This document shows positions 24,335 to 64,000 of a stretch of DNA of 64,000 bases, in pieces (position 1 is the first letter of the stretch; the number at the start of each line of letters is the position of its first letter). The position numbers and the translations under genes were made by a program. Origin of the DNA: a candidate division WOR-3 bacterium. GTDB taxonomy: Bacteria; Hydrothermota; Hydrothermia; LBFQ01. Location of the stretch: contig JBDRWW010000001.1 in assembly GCA_039802605.1 (NCBI GenBank), positions 192,001 through 256,000 of the forward strand, given 5' to 3'. The notes under the pieces were generated by a model, which saw nothing but the letters and a program-made list of their open reading frames with translations, searched no databases and was not told the DNA's origin.

Positions 24335-24425
24335 GGAGAGGTGGCCGAGCGGTCTAAGGCGGCGGCTTGCTAAGCCGTTGGGGAGGGTAATACCTCCCCC
24401 GTGGGTTCAAATCCCACCCTCTCCG
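24335..24425 (+). tRNA. tRNA-Ser (GCT), CCA not encoded
   Basis: GGAGAGG/CCTCTCC acceptor stem, anticodon loop TTGCTAA, long variable arm, GGTTCAAATCC T-arm. Confidence 0.95.
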
Positions 24426-42478: not shown

Positions 42479-44174
42479 CCTTATTGAATTCCGGGCATAA
42501 GCGTTTTAAAGTTTTTATATCACCGTCGCATACAATTTCCCCGTTTTCAAGGACCAAAATCCTATCCCCCCAATTAATAGTTGTAGGTTTATGCGCCACG
42601 ACTAAAAGGGTTGTATCGTTTAAGGTCTTTAAAAGGTTATAAACCGCCGATTCGTTTTTTAAATCCAGTGCGCTTGTGGGTTCATCCATTATTAAAAAGG
42701 ATGGATTTCTCAACAAAACCCTCCCTATTGCTATCCTCTGCTTTTCCCCTCCCGAAAGTTTTCCTTTTAGGTTTAAGACTTCTTCACCAAGCCTATCCTT
42801 CAAATGCTCCAAATTAAGGGATGATAATATTTCCAGGGGGTTTTTTCCAAAATTCTCCAAAAGTGTATCCTCAAAAATATACGGTTCCTGTGGGACAAAA
42901 CCTATTAACTCCCTCCATTTCTTTACATCGTAATCGTATAAACTTTTGCCATCTAAAAGGATTTCTCCCTTATAAGGTTTTACAAATCCGGCCAGGAGTT
43001 CAACAAATGTGGTTTTTCCCGAACCGGACTTTCCCACAACCACGATCTTTTCACCCCTTTTAATCCGCAAATGCGGAATCCTTAAAACGGATTTTTGTCC
43101 GTATTTAACCTCAACATTCCTTAATTCCAAAACCTCCCAATTTCTTGGGTCAAGGTTTCCCCAAACCTCCTTTGGTAGATCGTAAATCTCCTTTAACCTT
43201 TTGAGGCTAACCCTTGCGGTTTGCAGGTATGCCAAACTCTGGAAGATAAGTTTCAATGGCCTTATCGTTGAGAGGGAGGCGGCCAGGAATACTATAAAAG
43301 CGTCCGGTGAAACCGTACCGGTTTTGTATATGAAATATCCGGATAGTAGGAGTATTAAAGAGGCGCTAATACCCACAAGGCTTTCCGAGAGTATTGGGGC
43401 CAATGCGGCGGAAAATTCCAGTTTCAAGTATTTTTTGAAAAGGTTTTGTGAATACCTGTTAAACTTTAACTTGAATTTTTCGGCCAAATTTAAGGATTTT
43501 ATAACCTTTATCCCATCAAAGGTGTGCGCCAAAAAGGATGTCGTATCCCCTAAAGCGTTCATGGCTTTTTGCGCCCTCCTCTTTATGGTGCTTGATATAA
43601 TCCAACCCAACAATGCGGATAAGAAGAGGATACCCCAAGCGAAAAAACTCAATATGGGGGCCGATGTTATGGCCAATATTACAAAAATTAGCAGGTTCAA
43701 ACCATCCCCCACGATAGAACCCAAACCATCCCTAACGGCGAGTTTTACATTGTTTATTTCTACAGTTAAACGACCTATAATATCGCCAGACCGCAGGTTT
43801 TTAACGCTTTCAAAATCCGCATCGATTAAAGAGGAAAAAACCCCATTCCTTAAATCCCTACCTATGACCTCTTGTAGGAATAGTATGCCGAACTTTTTAG
43901 CGGAATTAACAATTAGTTTTGCCAAAAATATAAAAGCCACAAATAGGGAAAGGTTTCTTATGTTTTGAAAGGGATCCCCGCTTATTAAGAAGTTCTCTAT
44001 AAATCCCTTTAAAGGCTTCAAGGCGGGTATCAGGTTTATTTCCCCCTCTGACGATAGTAGAACCCTGAGAATTATCGGCAGTACGGATATTGATATACCC
44101 TCAAGTCCCGATGAAATTAAGCTAAAAAGGGAATATACGGCAAAAAGTGATATGTAAATGGGTTTAACCCTCAT
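42462..44174 (-). CDS. ABC transporter, fused permease/ATPase (MsbA-like)
   Basis: N-terminal TMD plus GKSGSGKT, LSGGEKQR and DEPTSALD motifs. Confidence 0.9.
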   Translation of the reverse strand: MRVKPIYISLFAVYSLFSLISSGLEGISISVLPIILRVLLSSEGEINLIPALKPLKGFIENFLISGDPFQNIRNLSLFVAFIFLAKLIVNSAKKFGILFLQEVIGRDLRNGVFSSLIDADFESVKNLRSGDIIGRLTVEINNVKLAVRDGLGSIVGDGLNLLIFVILAITSAPILSFFAWGILFLSALLGWIISSTIKRRAQKAMNALGDTTSFLAHTFDGIKVIKSLNLAEKFKLKFNRYSQNLFKKYLKLEFSAALAPILSESLVGISASLILLLSGYFIYKTGTVSPDAFIVFLAASLSTIRPLKLIFQSLAYLQTARVSLKRLKEIYDLPKEVWGNLDPRNWEVLELRNVEVKYGQKSVLRIPHLRIKRGEKIVVVGKSGSGKTTFVELLAGFVKPYKGEILLDGKSLYDYDVKKWRELIGFVPQEPYIFEDTLLENFGKNPLEILSSLNLEHLKDRLGEEVLNLKGKLSGGEKQRIAIGRVLLRNPSFLIMDEPTSALDLKNESAVYNLLKTLNDTTLLVVAHKPTTINWGDRILVLENGEIVCDGDIKTLKRLCPEFNKVIAQQ

Positions 44175-44515
44175 TCCGAATAAGATGCCCCGAATTCATC
44201 CGTTTCCCAAACTATAACCTCTTCAACATTGGGAAACTTTTCCTTTACCCTTTTGAACACCCACTCCGCCAACCTCTCCGAGGTTGAATTTCCCGGTATT
44301 AAATCGTTTATGTTAATCCGATGGGGTAAAATTTTCATTAAAAAATCCTTTACCTCCAAAAAATCAACCACGTATTCCTCTCCGTTTAAATCGCCACCTA
44401 TAACGACCTCAACCCTGTAATTGTGCCCGTGAAGGGGTTCGGCCTTTCCCTTATAACTTTTAAGATAATGCGCCCCACAAAAGGTATGCCTTACCCTAAC
44501 CTTAAACTTTCCCAT
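44171..44515 (-). CDS. 6-pyruvoyl-tetrahydropterin synthase family protein (ExxHGH, PTPS-III-like)
   Basis: GAH...AEPLHGHNY...VDF...TSE...VWET. Confidence 0.85.
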   Translation of the reverse strand: MGKFKVRVRHTFCGAHYLKSYKGKAEPLHGHNYRVEVVIGGDLNGEEYVVDFLEVKDFLMKILPHRININDLIPGNSTSERLAEWVFKRVKEKFPNVEEVIVWETDEFGASYSE

Positions 44516-44527
44516 TTATAAAAAAAG

Positions 44528-44601
44528 CGCCCCAGGAGGGAATCGAACCCCCGACCTGCGGCTTAGGAAGCCGCCGCTCTATCCTACTGAGCTACTGGGG
44601 C
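44528..44601 (-). tRNA. tRNA-Arg (CCT), CCA not encoded
   Basis: GCCCCAG/CTGGGGC acceptor stem, anticodon loop TTCCTAA, GGTTCGATTCC T-arm. Confidence 0.95.
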
Positions 44602-58854: not shown

Positions 58855-58885
58855 GGGATAAAAAATCCGGGGATATAATTCCCTT

Positions 58886-61381
58886 ATGTTTCCCTTGCCC
58901 CCTTTTTTGGAGTTTTTTACATACGAGAGCTCCCACTTTCACATACATTATCATAAAGGGGTTGAAGATGTCGTTATAACCGTTTCGGAAATAGCGGACA
59001 GCATATACGAGGAGTATGTTAAGGTTTTTGGATACCATCCAGGGAAGATAAACCTTGTGGTTCTAGACGCCTACGATTTTTCAAACGGTTTTTCCACACC
59101 CATTTATGAAAACACTATTTACATTTTCCTCCAAAACCCATTTGCGGATTTTTACTTTGGATTTGGTTCAATGAAAAGCTGGTTGGAACTCCTTATATCT
59201 CATGAATTGGTTCATATATTTCACCTTGATTATCCGCATACATTTTTGGATTTTCCGGTTGCAGGCATTGTTAGGAAAACCTTTGGTAGGGTTCCATCAA
59301 TATTCGCATTTCCAAACATCTTTGACCCCGGTTGGCAAATAGAGGGTTTGGCGGTTTATTTTGAATCAAAAGGCGGATATGGCAGGTTAAACTCCGGCCA
59401 GTACAAAAACCTATTATTGGCTTATGTTTCGGGTAATAGGTTTTCCCCAGATATTATGTCAAGCAACCCATCCGTATGGCAGGAGGGTTTAATCCCGTAT
59501 CTATGGGGCGGCTTTTTCACAAAATATTTGGCTGAGAAATATGGTGAAGATTACATAATTGACAGGTTCGTTAAATCCTCTTATTTTGAAGACCCGTCTT
59601 GTGTTTTAACACTCGGATTTTTCCCGGGAAGTTGGATTTTAAAAGATTATGAGGATTTTAAAAGTTGGAGGGAGGGGCTTATAAAAGAGGCGATGGAATT
59701 TAAAATGCCGGATAGTCTAATAACGGATTACGGATACTTAAAACTTTCACCTACACTATCCCCATCAAGCAAATACTTGGCTTTTATTGAAAACACAACA
59801 TACGATTACCCTTCAATTGTGATAATTGACATAGGGAACGGAAAGGAAATAAACCGCTTAAAGGGTTTGGTCTTACCCAATTTGTCCTTTGAAGGGGATA
59901 GCGTCATTTACTTTGCCATGTACGAAAATCACAAAAACTTTTTCGTATTTTCGGATATTTATTCTTGGAATTTTATAACGGGGAAAACCAAAAGGATAAC
60001 AATGGGTGAAAGGGCCTTTTCACCGTATAAATACGGGGATACGCTCTTTTATGTAAGAAGGGTTGGGTTAAAGCAGGAGATAGTTATGAGGGTTGGGGAT
60101 AAAGGGGAAGTTTTACACACCGGAAAAGTTTATCAGGGATTTAATAACCTCCAATACTTTAACGGGAAATTGTTTCTCAGCATCAACGACGATGGGAAAT
60201 ACGATATAGGGTATTTTGACTTTGAAGATGGGGAAATTAAGAGGATTACAAACGATGAAGCCGTTGATATTTTTTCTTATGCGGATAGTTCGGGGGTTTA
60301 TTTTTCAAGGGATGAGGGGAAAGGTTATGAGGTTTTCGTTTATAAAAACGGTAAATTTTTTAAGGCTAACAAAAGGTTCTTTTCGGTTATGTATCCCAAG
60401 CCTTTTAAAGGGAAAGTATTGGGTTCTTATTTGACGCCAAAGGGTTATGATGTGGGAATTTCCGCCGTTGATTTTGAAATGGCGGAAGTCCCCATTTTAT
60501 ATAAACAAAAGGAGGAATTGCCCCTTTATGGCTTAAAGCCCGTTTCAAAACCTTACAACCCCCTAAAACACACGATTCCGAAGTATTGGTTACCCTCAAC
60601 ATTTGCCGTTTTGTACGATACCTTAATCATATTTGAATCCGCGGTTGAAACATCTGGTGGCGATGTTTTGTTTAGGCACAATTACGCATATTCTTTAAAC
60701 CTCTTTTCAAGGATAAGCCCTTCCGATACATTTCTGATGTTTTCTCAAAACCTCTCATATATATTTACCGGTTCTTATCCCTTTTTCTCCGCCAATATAA
60801 AATTGGCATACGATACCATTCCCCGCTTTGAAGTGTACCCGTCCTTTGATTTTCCCGTTTTTAAAACGAGGAGCTTGAAGGGGTTTTCAATAGTTTCAGG
60901 GTTTTCAAGGGATTTTTGGAAGTTGGGGGTTTCCGCTTATTATTCCTCGGCGTTTTCATACAAAAAAAGCGGGATTTTGGCCGAGGGCTTTACGGTTTAT
61001 ACGGAAGCGTTATACGGAAATTATGGAAAAGAGTTTTATGTAGGTGGAAGACTCGCTTTACCTCTGTGGAACATCCTCTTAAACTTTAAGGGCTTTGCCT
61101 ATAAAGGTTTGTTCGACACCTTGGGTTACTTTGTCCTATTGCTACCAAACATTTTTAAACCCAATTTTCCGGATATAAACATAGGGTTGATACCACCACC
61201 TTATTACCATTTTTCGCCTTTATTGTTCCTTTCAAGGATATACCCATCCGCCTTTTACGATGGGGATTTTGGATTTTTGCTCTTTGGAGATTTTGTAGTT
61301 TTGGGAAATACACCCATAACTTTTGGAGTCGGATATTCAATGTACCCGAATAGGGGTTTAAGGCTTGTAATTCGGCCATGA
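58886..61381 (+). CDS. Envelope protein: zincin-like domain (HELVH), TolB-like propeller and C-terminal beta-barrel-like region
   Basis: HELVH...W..EGLAVYFES, SPTLSPSS-type repeats, beta-rich aromatic C-terminus. Confidence 0.65.
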   Translation: MFPLPPFLEFFTYESSHFHIHYHKGVEDVVITVSEIADSIYEEYVKVFGYHPGKINLVVLDAYDFSNGFSTPIYENTIYIFLQNPFADFYFGFGSMKSWLELLISHELVHIFHLDYPHTFLDFPVAGIVRKTFGRVPSIFAFPNIFDPGWQIEGLAVYFESKGGYGRLNSGQYKNLLLAYVSGNRFSPDIMSSNPSVWQEGLIPYLWGGFFTKYLAEKYGEDYIIDRFVKSSYFEDPSCVLTLGFFPGSWILKDYEDFKSWREGLIKEAMEFKMPDSLITDYGYLKLSPTLSPSSKYLAFIENTTYDYPSIVIIDIGNGKEINRLKGLVLPNLSFEGDSVIYFAMYENHKNFFVFSDIYSWNFITGKTKRITMGERAFSPYKYGDTLFYVRRVGLKQEIVMRVGDKGEVLHTGKVYQGFNNLQYFNGKLFLSINDDGKYDIGYFDFEDGEIKRITNDEAVDIFSYADSSGVYFSRDEGKGYEVFVYKNGKFFKANKRFFSVMYPKPFKGKVLGSYLTPKGYDVGISAVDFEMAEVPILYKQKEELPLYGLKPVSKPYNPLKHTIPKYWLPSTFAVLYDTLIIFESAVETSGGDVLFRHNYAYSLNLFSRISPSDTFLMFSQNLSYIFTGSYPFFSANIKLAYDTIPRFEVYPSFDFPVFKTRSLKGFSIVSGFSRDFWKLGVSAYYSSAFSYKKSGILAEGFTVYTEALYGNYGKEFYVGGRLALPLWNILLNFKGFAYKGLFDTLGYFVLLLPNIFKPNFPDINIGLIPPPYYHFSPLLFLSRIYPSAFYDGDFGFLLFGDFVVLGNTPITFGVGYSMYPNRGLRLVIRP

Positions 61382-61421
61382 GGGTTGTTATTAAACAAAA
61401 CGCCCTTATAATACCCACCTC

Positions 61422-61493
61422 GGCCCCATCGTCTAAGGGCTAGGACGCCACTCTTTCAAGGTGGAAGTGGGGGTTCGAGTCCCCCTGGGGCCG
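61422..61493 (+). tRNA. tRNA-Glu (TTC), CCA not encoded
   Basis: GGCCCCA/TGGGGCC acceptor stem, anticodon loop CTTTCAA, GGTTCGAGTCC T-arm. Confidence 0.95.
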
Positions 61494-62828
61494 TTGCCCT
61501 TATTAAGGTATTCAACCCCGGAGCTTTTATCTCTTTGGTCGGAATCAAACAAGTTTAGAACATGGGCAAGGGTTGAGTGGGCGGTTTCGAAATCCCAAGA
61601 AGAGCTAGGAGTTATACCGAAAAAAGGCCTTTCCGAAAGGCTCCAAAAACTAATAGAGGATGACAAATTCTGGGAAGATGTTCCAAAGAAGGTTGAGGAG
61701 GTTGAAAGGGAATACGACCACGATGTTTTGGCGTTTTTAGCGGTAATTGAAAGGGAGTTGGGTGAGGCCGGAAATTTTTTACATTTCGGTTTAACATCCT
61801 CGGATGTCGTTGATACCGCAAACTCAATTCTATTTAGGGATGCCCTTAAACACATACTTACATCTTTGGAAGAACTTTCACAGGAGTTGTTAAAAAAGGC
61901 GGAAAAATACAAGTATTCCCCGGTAATGGGTAGAACGCACGGAGTATTCGCTCAACCAACAACATTTGGGTTAAAATTCCTAAGCTTCTATTCCGAATCC
62001 CTGCGCAACATTGAAAGGTTAAAAGAGGCAATTGATGAAATATCCTATGGGAAGATTTCCGGAGCCGTTGGTAATTATATCACAATAACCCCAGAGGTTG
62101 AGGAAAGGGCTTTGAGATATCTCGGATTAAAGGTTGAACCCGTATCAACCCAGATAATCCCAAGGGATAGGTACGCGTATGTTTTAAACGTTTTAACCCT
62201 TATAGGGGCCTTTTTGGAGAGGCTTGCGCTTGAAATAAGGCTTTCTTCAAGGACGGAGGTGGGGGAAATTCTTGAACCTTTTGGGAAACAGCAGAGGGGT
62301 TCATCCGCAATGCCGCATAAGAGGAATCCGATAAAAAGCGAAAGGCTAACGGGTATAGCGAGGCTTTTGAGGGGGTGGGCTTTGGCGGAGAACGAAAGCG
62401 TTGCGCTATGGCACGAAAGGGATATAAGTCATTCATCCGTTGAAAGGTTTGTCCTCCCGGATGCCACAACCACATTACATTACGCCTTAAAACTCGCAAA
62501 AAGAATTGTTGAAGGCTTATATATTGATACCCAAAGGGCAGAAGGGAACATAACAAAATTTGGGGATTTCTATTTATCTTCAATTCTCTTAATGCTTTTG
62601 GTTGAAAAGGGGGTTTCAAGGGACGAATGTTATGCTTGGGTTAAAGAGGTTTCGCAAAGGGCATTTGAAAACCAAAGCGGCATAATTGAAGAATCCTTAA
62701 AACACCCAAAGATAAGATCCCTAATAAGCGAAGATGAGTTGAGAAAACGCTTAAAAATTGATTTTACATCGTATGTTGATACGATTTTTGAAAGGGTTAA
62801 AGGTTTAAATAAAACCGGCATAGAATAA
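61494..62828 (+). CDS. purB: Adenylosuccinate lyase
   Basis: RY near the N-terminus, HFGLTSSD, GRTHG and SSAMPHKRNP motifs. TTG 61494 is the first in-frame start outside the tRNA. Confidence 0.95.
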   Translation: MPLLRYSTPELLSLWSESNKFRTWARVEWAVSKSQEELGVIPKKGLSERLQKLIEDDKFWEDVPKKVEEVEREYDHDVLAFLAVIERELGEAGNFLHFGLTSSDVVDTANSILFRDALKHILTSLEELSQELLKKAEKYKYSPVMGRTHGVFAQPTTFGLKFLSFYSESLRNIERLKEAIDEISYGKISGAVGNYITITPEVEERALRYLGLKVEPVSTQIIPRDRYAYVLNVLTLIGAFLERLALEIRLSSRTEVGEILEPFGKQQRGSSAMPHKRNPIKSERLTGIARLLRGWALAENESVALWHERDISHSSVERFVLPDATTTLHYALKLAKRIVEGLYIDTQRAEGNITKFGDFYLSSILLMLLVEKGVSRDECYAWVKEVSQRAFENQSGIIEESLKHPKIRSLISEDELRKRLKIDFTSYVDTIFERVKGLNKTGIE

Positions 62829-62834
62829 ACAATA

Positions 62835-64000
62835 ATGATTTTGGAAAATATCAAATTGCCGGAAGGTTTAAGGGGTTTGAATTACAAGGAATTGGAAGCC
62901 CTTGCAGAGGAGATAAGGGAACTCATAATAACCGTAACATCCGAAAACGGCGGACATGTTGGGCCCAATCTCGGGGTAGTGGAATTAACCATTTCATTGC
63001 TAAGGAATTTCAATCCACCAAAGGATAAGATTATTTGGGATGTTTCACACCAGACATATGTTTATAAAATCTTAACCGACAGGCTTGAAAGGTTCCATAC
63101 ATTAAGGAAATTCGGGGGAATATCCGGTTTTGCCAACATATTTGAAAGCCCCTATGATGCTTGGGGTGCCGGGCATGCGGGAACCGCCCTCTCCGCGGCG
63201 TTGGGGTTTGCAAAGGCTAGGGATCACACCGGCGAGGATTATTATGTGGTTTGTGTAATAGGGGATGCAACATTAACCGTGGGTATGACGCTTGAAGCCA
63301 TGAACAATGCCGGTTCCTTAGGTGTTGATATCATAACCATACTAAACGATAACGGTTGGTCAATTGACAAAAATGTGGGAATAATAGCGCAAATGCTATC
63401 AAAGGTTCAGGTAAACCCCGTTTATAATACCTTGCGGGAAAAGATATATAGGTTGCTTCCGAAAAAGGGGAAATATTGGGGTGGGAAATTAGAAGATGTT
63501 ATAAAAACAATTGTCCAAGACCCGGCCGCCTTGTTTGAGTTCTTTGGTTTCAGGTATATAGGTCCAATTGACGGGCATAATTTAAGATTGCTTGACGATG
63601 TTATAGGGAATGCGAAGGGTTTAAAGGGGCCCATCCTTATACATGTAATAACCGAAAAGGGTAGGGGTTTTAAGCCGGCCTTAGCCGACCCGGAAACCTT
63701 CCACGGCCTTGGCCCTTATGACAAAATAGACGGGAAGTCTAAGAAGAGTGGCGATCTACCCACATACTCTTCCGTATTTGGAAACACCGTACTTGAAATA
63801 GCCCGTATGGACCCCAAGGTGGTGGGTATAACCGCCGCGATGCCTAAGGGGACGGGGCTTGATAAGTTAAGGGACAATTTAAAATCGCAATATTACGATG
63901 TTGGTATAGCGGAACAGCATGCCGTAACATTTGCGGCGGGACTGGCAAGGGCTGGTGTTAAACCTTTTGTCGCAATATACTCAACATTCTTACAGAGGGC
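62835..64000 (+). CDS. dxs: 1-deoxy-D-xylulose-5-phosphate synthase (3' truncated by window edge)
   Basis: Translated by hand: MILENIKLP...GGHVGPNLGVVEL...WDVSHQ...GPIDGH...ITAAM...DVGIAEQHAV...YSTFLQR. Confidence 0.95.
   Translation, partial: MILENIKLPEGLRGLNYKELEALAEEIRELIITVTSENGGHVGPNLGVVELTISLLRNFNPPKDKIIWDVSHQTYVYKILTDRLERFHTLRKFGGISGFANIFESPYDAWGAGHAGTALSAALGFAKARDHTGEDYYVVCVIGDATLTVGMTLEAMNNAGSLGVDIITILNDNGWSIDKNVGIIAQMLSKVQVNPVYNTLREKIYRLLPKKGKYWGGKLEDVIKTIVQDPAALFEFFGFRYIGPIDGHNLRLLDDVIGNAKGLKGPILIHVITEKGRGFKPALADPETFHGLGPYDKIDGKSKKSGDLPTYSSVFGNTVLEIARMDPKVVGITAAMPKGTGLDKLRDNLKSQYYDVGIAEQHAVTFAAGLARAGVKPFVAIYSTFLQR

Follow-up and report, generated by a model that had tools for sequence, protein, structure and literature searches.

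A tRNA-Glu gene abutting the purB start codon without a spacer suggests tRNA punctuation of leaderless mRNAs in a candidate division WOR-3 bacterium

A 64,000-nucleotide (nt) stretch of DNA from a candidate division WOR-3 bacterium, an uncultured inhabitant of hot springs (Hydrothermota; assembly GCA_039802605.1, contig JBDRWW010000001.1, positions 192,001 to 256,000), hereafter the window, carries a tRNA-Glu(UUC) gene whose final base is followed directly by the start codon of purB, the gene for adenylosuccinate lyase, which is itself followed by dxs. The assembly comprises 1.65 Mb in 23 contigs, has a G+C content of 41%, and is 90% complete. Coordinates are given in window numbering, and the features of the locus are as follows.

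61385..61390, + strand: -35-like hexamer TTGTTA, 10 of 12 matches in the promoter scan, 16 nt upstream of the -10 box
61407..61412, + strand: -10 box TATAAT of the tRNA-Glu/purB/dxs unit (sequence and promoter scan)
61413..61421, + strand: pyrimidine-rich spacer acccacctc, 9 nt, between the -10 box and G61422
61422..61493, + strand: tRNA-Glu(UUC), 72 nt, discriminator G61493, no encoded CCA (Rfam, ARAGORN)
61494..61496, + strand: TTG start codon of purB, the first base after the discriminator, aligned with the ATG of the sister genus
61494..62828, + strand: purB, adenylosuccinate lyase, 444 amino acids (aa; TIGR00928)
62835..63998, + strand: dxs, ATG 6 nt past the purB stop, running off the window (TIGR00204, 475 bits)
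58886..61381, + strand: upstream open reading frame (ORF) of 831 aa, a separate leaderless unit (TATAAT, 6 nt, ATG; 58874-58888)

The junction reads TATAAT, acccacctc, the tRNA, and then TTGCCCTTATTAAGGTAT. A preliminary description of this stretch had placed a TATAAT box 9 nt ahead of a CCA-less tRNA-Glu at 61422-61493 with no spacer before purB, and all of this is confirmed by the sequence and by Rfam, whose tRNA model RF00005 aligns along its full length (positions 1-71) to 61422-61493 with a score of 62 bits (gathering threshold 29; E 4.7e-13). The bases that follow the unpaired discriminator G61493 are TTGCCC, and hence no CCA is encoded. ARAGORN likewise calls a tRNA-Glu with anticodon ttc, at 61421-61494, one base out at both ends owing to a second possible acceptor pairing of 7 bp; the register given by Rfam, which the preliminary description shares, places T at tRNA position 8. 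This is the single copy of tRNA-Glu(UUC) in the assembly, the other tRNA-Glu being CUC. The identity of purB is robust: the protein scores 438.5 bits against the TIGR00928 equivalog model (cutoff, 326.2), with residues 5-435 on profile positions 4-435 of 436.

A sigma-70-like site (TTGTTA-16-TATAAT, 61385-61412) lies upstream of the tRNA, its first hexamer 4 nt past the stop codon of the 831-aa ORF, and it is the sole promoter-like site: a scan with the sigma-70 consensus found none on the + strand within the tRNA. Taken alone, the regional scan does not reach significance (3 sites against 2.3 expected from shuffled sequence); the TATAAT site draws its weight from the recurrence of the same box elsewhere, since a cTTATAATA box ends 9-13 nt upstream of nearly every tRNA gene or cluster in the genome. 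Given a zero-nucleotide spacer and a tRNA devoid of promoter-like sites, there is no room for a separate promoter or ribosome binding site (RBS), which agrees with the preliminary description as to the RBS. Where leaderless genes would start relative to a -10 box, the first purine here is G61422, so the 5' leader of the pre-tRNA would probably be 0-3 nt long. Across the genome, the spacer from -10 box to tRNA 5' end is pyrimidine rich (consensus atCCaCcTc) and G1 of the tRNA is often the first purine; pre-tRNAs genome-wide may have leaders of 0-3 nt, although RNase P RNA is present (211.6 bits).

We searched for this junction in 41 related genomes and read the 30 loci that were returned. purB directly follows tRNA-Glu in 12 of them, every one within the family to which the window belongs, and in 10 of these 12 genomes the -10 box ends 9 nt upstream of the tRNA. 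Throughout the window's own genus (five of five genomes), the spacer is 0 nt, the start codon is TTG, and the protein opens with MPLLRY or MPLKRY; the zero spacing, whose conservation the preliminary description had proposed as a check, is thus kept within the genus. In the sister genus, all seven genomes have 5-8 nt of T (with a final C in one genome) between the tRNA and an ATG, and the protein opens MPLRRY or MSLRRY; six of the seven have no in-frame start codon between the previous stop and this ATG. Because it occupies the same codon (MPLLRY against MPLRRY), the TTG at 61494 is the homologue of the unambiguous ATG start of the sister genus, which supports the preliminary placement of the PurB start at this position. 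No in-frame ATG, GTG, or TTG occurs downstream of 61494 until well beyond the conserved N-terminus, and no Shine-Dalgarno (SD) motif precedes purB in either genus. The T run of the sister genus, placed behind a GC-rich acceptor stem, could set the ratio of tRNA to mRNA by partial termination or pausing; this spacer has been lost in the window's genus.

The arrangement is by no means confined to purB. ARAGORN and Rfam agree on 46 tRNA genes in the assembly, none of which encodes CCA. TTT or CTT stands right after 40 of the 46, with or without a downstream ORF, and this indifference to the ORF points to a 3' processing signal centered on the tRNA. When abutment is defined as an ATG or TTG that opens an ORF of at least 50 aa and lies 0-12 nt past the discriminator, 35 of the 46 tRNAs have an abutting start codon, compared with 2,681 of 20,000 random positions (13.4%). 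The offset is 0 nt in a single case, purB, 1 nt in twelve cases, 2 nt in four, 3 nt in nine, and 4-12 nt in the remaining nine; 23 of the start codons are TTG and 12 are ATG. Among the 11 tRNAs that lack an abutting ORF, four precede another tRNA of their cluster, while tRNA-Gln(CUG) is separated from tuf by a gap of 19 nt with a clear GGAGG, an arrangement of the classical type.

We scanned the 34 other tRNA-abutting ORFs against NCBIfam. Families were matched at an E value of 1e-15 or better by 23 of them, and 11 had no match. In 12 of the 23, one of residues 1-4 falls on profile positions 1-6: ribosomal proteins L28 and L33, MurA, a GalE-like epimerase, Asd, Prs, a 2-hydroxyacid dehydrogenase, an Rrf2 regulator, FadD, AhcY, a patatin-like protein, and PdxT. 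Six others are collinear with their profiles within 8 residues, and five match internal domains only. These N-terminal alignments indicate that the starts directly behind tRNAs are the real N-termini of unrelated housekeeping genes. The purB junction is thus the zero-spacer extreme of a genome-wide pattern and is not specific to purB.

Two further abutting ORFs merit a separate note. The ORF behind tRNA-Leu(CAG) (C5:46697-47179, 160 aa) matches only the C-terminal part of LysA (profile positions 315-410), with a LysA-like N-terminal motif near its start, and may represent a lysA that is broken or has suffered a deletion, or else an error of assembly. A BREX PglX-like methyltransferase gene of 1,134 aa (C2:41485-44889) starts 10 nt past tRNA-Leu(UAG), so that a defense gene is wired to a tRNA promoter.

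The taxonomic spread of the pattern was assessed in four other genomes, using the 30 best-scoring tRNAs of each (29 in G024). A start codon lies 0-12 nt past the tRNA in 16 of 30 cases in a genome of the sister genus (G010; offsets 0-10) and in 14 of 30 in a genome from a second family of the same order (G013; offsets 0-9). The complete genome of G020, from another order of the class, has 4 of 30, which is the background level, and normal SD sites are visible there; G024, from yet another family, has 10 of 29, at offsets of 6-12 and never closer. By these counts, and within the limits of the sample, tight abutment is an order-level trait. In G024, 12 of the 29 tRNA genes encode CCA; in many of these a run of T comes next, and an ATG at 6-12 nt with no SD motif. 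The family of G024 has an RNase Z-like protein, and its arrangement resembles the cut-after-CCA system of Thermotoga.

The genome in which this pattern occurs is rich in genes that appear to be leaderless. In 153 instances an ORF of at least 100 aa starts 6-10 nt past an exact TTATAAT, compared with 29 for a control heptamer, and TA[TA]AAT is followed at the same distance by ATG in 358, GTG in 54, and TTG in 118 instances. In a crude set of 1,487 genes, a -10-like hexamer lies 6-10 nt ahead of the longest start in 454 (about 30%), against 45-60 at four control distances; in the same set SD-like 4-mers are modestly enriched (241 compared with 135 in the control). A 12-nt motif for the 16S rRNA 3' tail had no match in the assembly. 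The 5' ends of tRNAs and the start codons of leaderless genes lie at an equal distance from the -10 box. purB itself, whose start is 81 nt beyond the end of the box with the tRNA in between, falls outside the 6-10 nt of primary leaderless genes; the abundance of such genes nevertheless makes leaderless translation of purB plausible. Folding predictions are consistent with this, as the tRNA-Glu cloverleaf forms independently and the 5' end of purB is predicted to be unpaired at 70°C. Between the purB stop and the ATG of dxs (62826-62837, gaaTAAacaataATG), no SD-like motif was found; internal genes such as dxs may rely on coupling or reinitiation and not on SD pairing.

We judge it modestly probable that the purB junction reflects a design in which one RNA, cut once after G61493, yields a leaderless purB-dxs mRNA that begins with UUG, and that this design extends genome-wide and order-wide. 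From the arrangement of the sequence, we infer that tRNA-Glu(UUC), purB, and dxs are co-transcribed from the TATAAT box at 61407-61412, with a transcription start at the first base of the tRNA or 1-3 nt ahead of it. A single endonucleolytic cut exactly after the discriminator would then give two products. The first would be a tRNA to which one of the genome's two PolyA_pol/CCA-type nucleotidyltransferases (PF01743; 388 and 469 aa) could add CCA, and the second a 5'-monophosphate purB-dxs mRNA opening with its own UUG start codon, which would be translated by the leaderless route used for a large share of this organism's genes. The cut would have to be precise: zero spacing is kept in all five genomes of the genus, and a displacement by one base would cost either the tRNA its discriminator or purB its start codon. 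On this account, ordinary operons would, genome-wide and order-wide, have tRNA genes as 5' modules that bear the promoter and can be excised.

The preliminary description had proposed that RNase Z makes this cut and that the arrangement links tRNA processing to purine synthesis. Its outline of co-transcription, a cut at the discriminator, and leaderless initiation at UUG is retained here in conditional form, and the CCA-adding enzyme that it anticipated is present; its choice of enzyme and its purine meaning are not retained. The same arrangement precedes murA, asd, prs, rpmB, rpmG, fadD, ahcY, and nuoH, and since these are unrelated genes, the link is unsupported: this is not a purine-specific circuit. 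We advance more tentatively, at a little short of an even chance, the broader proposition of an order-wide bacterial tRNA punctuation, in which most tRNA genes would be such 5' modules, a nuclease other than RNase Z would cut at Y-U-U immediately past the discriminator, two thirds of the released mRNAs would have UUG as their start codon, no more than 3 nt from the new 5' end, and the released mRNAs would be efficiently translated by the leaderless route.

Several observations weigh against the single-cut account. One set concerns the enzyme. The best match to the RNase Z model TIGR02651 in this assembly scores 16.5 bits and is a beta-CASP protein; none of the 41 related genomes has a protein above the model's cutoff, and the window's own family offers weak metallo-beta-lactamase (MBL) matches only. 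RNase Z-like proteins of about 250 aa, scoring 75-130 bits, do occur in two other families of the class, and no homologue of them was found in this 90%-complete assembly, nor were RNase E/G and RNase J. The start codons also sit uneasily with leaderless translation: primary leaderless genes mostly use ATG, whereas genes that abut tRNAs mostly use TTG (23 of 35), and in systems studied so far UUG serves poorly as the start codon of leaderless mRNAs. The difference in codon usage could follow from the two ways of generating a 5' end. In a primary transcript, the first base of the start codon would have to double as a good initiating purine, while a start behind a tRNA would have to obey the Y-T-T rule for the bases next to each discriminator, which would leave UUG as the only possible start codon at offsets of 0-2. 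Contigs from a hot-spring metatranscriptome cover 61100-61243 in the upstream gene and 61594-61900 in purB and leave out the junction (61244-61593); they say nothing about 5' ends, and DNA carry-over is possible. Three raw hot-spring metatranscriptomes, of which 3-5% each was sampled, yielded 0 reads and hence provide no test. The last point is the purB frame, which is open backwards into the tRNA and holds GTG codons at -27 and -33 (GTG 61467 and 61461), so that on sequence alone a longer PurB keeps a small probability.

The proposed cutter, judged by gene content, is not a canonical RNase Z. RNase Y (635 bits) and two RNB-family exonucleases are present in the genome. A search of 19 genomes for RNase PH gave nothing beyond weak matches to PNPase-sized ORFs. 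The genome also encodes a 434-aa beta-CASP RNase very like TTHA0252 of Thermus (327 bits to 2dkf). Homologues of it were found in none of the seven genomes of the second family, in which abutment is nonetheless found, and it therefore cannot be the common cutter. We likewise set aside the 231- to 237-aa MBLs of G003, G006, and G010, which have no orthologue here. A 291-aa MBL (C14:12367-13239) is a weak lead: it tracks the lineages with abutment (8 of 11 genomes of family f1, 7 of 7 of f2, 3 of 4 of f8, and 1 of 2 of f6) and was not found in six other families, a correspondence that rests on abutment counts from four genomes and on kin that are not independent. Its structural model (pLDDT 94.8) is predicted to be PqsE-like (Foldseek TM 0.80) and also resembles ST1585 and, more distantly, LACTB2; no RNase Z is among the top 50 Foldseek structures.

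Among the alternatives, the one that survives best, which we nevertheless regard as unlikely, agrees that tRNA and purB are co-transcribed and denies that they are neatly split. An imprecise endonuclease (e.g., RNase Y) together with 3' exonucleases would make the tRNA 3' ends, and purB would be translated independently of SD pairing from uncut or variably cut RNA with an unstructured, U-rich start. RNase Y and the two RNB-family exonucleases are present, SD-like motifs are only weakly enriched genome-wide (the 241 and 135 given above), and dxs, like purB, has none. Propionibacterium acnes also offers a precedent, as it lacks an obvious tRNase Z and some endonuclease still appears to cut 3' of its CCA-less tRNAs (PMC3848588). 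An imprecise process is hard to reconcile with a spacer held at zero across the five genomes of the genus, in which an error of one base destroys the discriminator or the start codon, and with the finding that in none of the 46 tRNAs does a start codon overlap the discriminator. Reasoning from ribosome structure, moreover, one would expect a GC-rich tRNA folded directly at position -1 to obstruct the path of the mRNA through the small subunit.

A cut by RNase Z after the discriminator, coupling tRNA processing specifically to purine synthesis, we regard as quite improbable. The substrate would suit, since a CCA-less tRNA followed by U is what RNase Z of Bacillus subtilis acts upon, and a CCA-adding-type enzyme is at hand. 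The candidate enzyme itself was not found by the TIGR02651 threshold in this 90%-complete assembly or in any of the 41 relatives, the RNase Z-like proteins of the two other families have no counterpart here, and the junction also stands ahead of at least 34 other, functionally unrelated ORFs.

Still less probable is the view that the adjacency is meaningless, a product of small-genome compaction, and that purB has a promoter of its own that escaped recognition or is barely expressed. The genome is indeed small and dense at 1.65 Mb, and the promoter scan covered the sigma-70 consensus only; against this view, purB is intact and conserved, the junction is kept across two genera with a start codon and no RBS, 35 of 46 tRNAs have an abutting start compared with 13% of random positions, and another order of the class, whose genomes are of similar size, has only 4 of 30. 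The least probable reading of all, that PurB begins inside the tRNA at GTG 61461 or 61467 with an N-terminal extension and that TTG 61494 is an internal leucine codon, can appeal to the frame being open to 61461 and to a GGTGG that adjoins the GTG codons, but this SD-like motif is too close to serve (it ends 2 nt ahead of GTG 61467 and overlaps GTG 61461), both codons are buried in tRNA stems, occur in the window's genus only, and are fixed there by the tRNA sequence, the sister genus has spacers of varying length (5, 7, or 8 nt) with no conserved frame into the tRNA and, in six of seven genomes, no in-frame start upstream of the ATG, and the purB profile begins 3 positions before residue 5.

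The closest known system to a junction that is cut once to release a leaderless mRNA would be the tRNA punctuation of animal mitochondrial transcripts, reportedly described by Ojala, Montoya, and Attardi in 1981. In both, tRNA genes abut coding sequences by zero to a few nucleotides genome-wide, excising the tRNA would place the 5' end of the mRNA on the start codon or beside it, the mRNAs would be leaderless, and CCA would be added afterwards. The differences are equally plain: the system here belongs to a free-living bacterium whose genome measures 1.65 Mb; each tRNA has a promoter of its own, in contrast to the one polycistronic precursor of mitochondria; only the 5' end of the mRNA would be punctuated, with UUG the commonest start; and no homologue of RNase Z/ELAC2 was found in this genome, where RNase P RNA is present.

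RNase Z maturation of the Bacillus subtilis type acts on CCA-less pre-tRNAs, and the present genes share with it the absence of CCA, the U-rich trailer, and the requirement that the cut fall immediately 3' of the discriminator; they differ from it in that an RNase Z gene was found neither here nor in the family. In the tufB operon of Escherichia coli, tRNA genes and a protein gene stand under one promoter with a long spacer and a normal RBS. The shared promoter is as at purB and the long RBS-bearing spacer is not, and the tRNA-Gln(CUG)-tuf unit of the present genome is of this classical kind.

Two bacterial groups share the leaderless background. About a third of ORFs in Deinococcus-Thermus have a -10 motif a few bases ahead of the start (PMC12340547), which is much as in the 454 of 1,487 genes here. 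The leaderless mRNAs described there are primary transcripts that start with AUG or GUG, and the text of that paper does not contain the word "tRNA" (PMC12340547); in our case the -10 box and the start codon are separated by a tRNA, so that, unlike in Deinococcus-Thermus, the leaderless end would have to arise by processing. P. acnes is also rich in leaderless genes, like this genome; unlike here, abutting start codons or a cut that produces an mRNA are not described in the accessible part of the report (PMC3848588). A search of the full-text literature, which did not extend to subscription journals, found no report of a bacterium whose tRNA excision makes leaderless mRNAs.

Should both the cut and the leaderless translation prove real, this organism would be, as far as the literature was searched, the first free-living bacterium described with mitochondria-like punctuation, and it would follow that tRNA punctuation can arise outside organelles. 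A new and very precise tRNA 3' endonuclease would then operate in a lineage in which RNase Z, RNase E/G, and RNase J were not found, and the ribosome would accept a 5'-terminal UUG, which would call into question the requirement for AUG or GUG in leaderless initiation. There is a practical consequence for annotation as well, as gene callers that demand an RBS or disfavor TTG will mis-set dozens of starts in these genomes.

Elsewhere in the window, the 831-aa ORF upstream of the junction has a weak TolB-propeller match and no better. The other two tRNA genes of the window, each with its own TATAAT box and a CTTTTTT trailer, conform to the design seen at purB. tRNA-Ser(GCU) (24335-24425, + strand) is followed after 12 nt by the ATG of an 89-aa ORF without a family match. 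tRNA-Arg(CCU) (44528-44601, - strand) is likewise followed after 12 nt by the ATG of a 114-aa QueD-like ORF (44171-44515), which scores 64.6 bits against TIGR03367, below the cutoff of 89.

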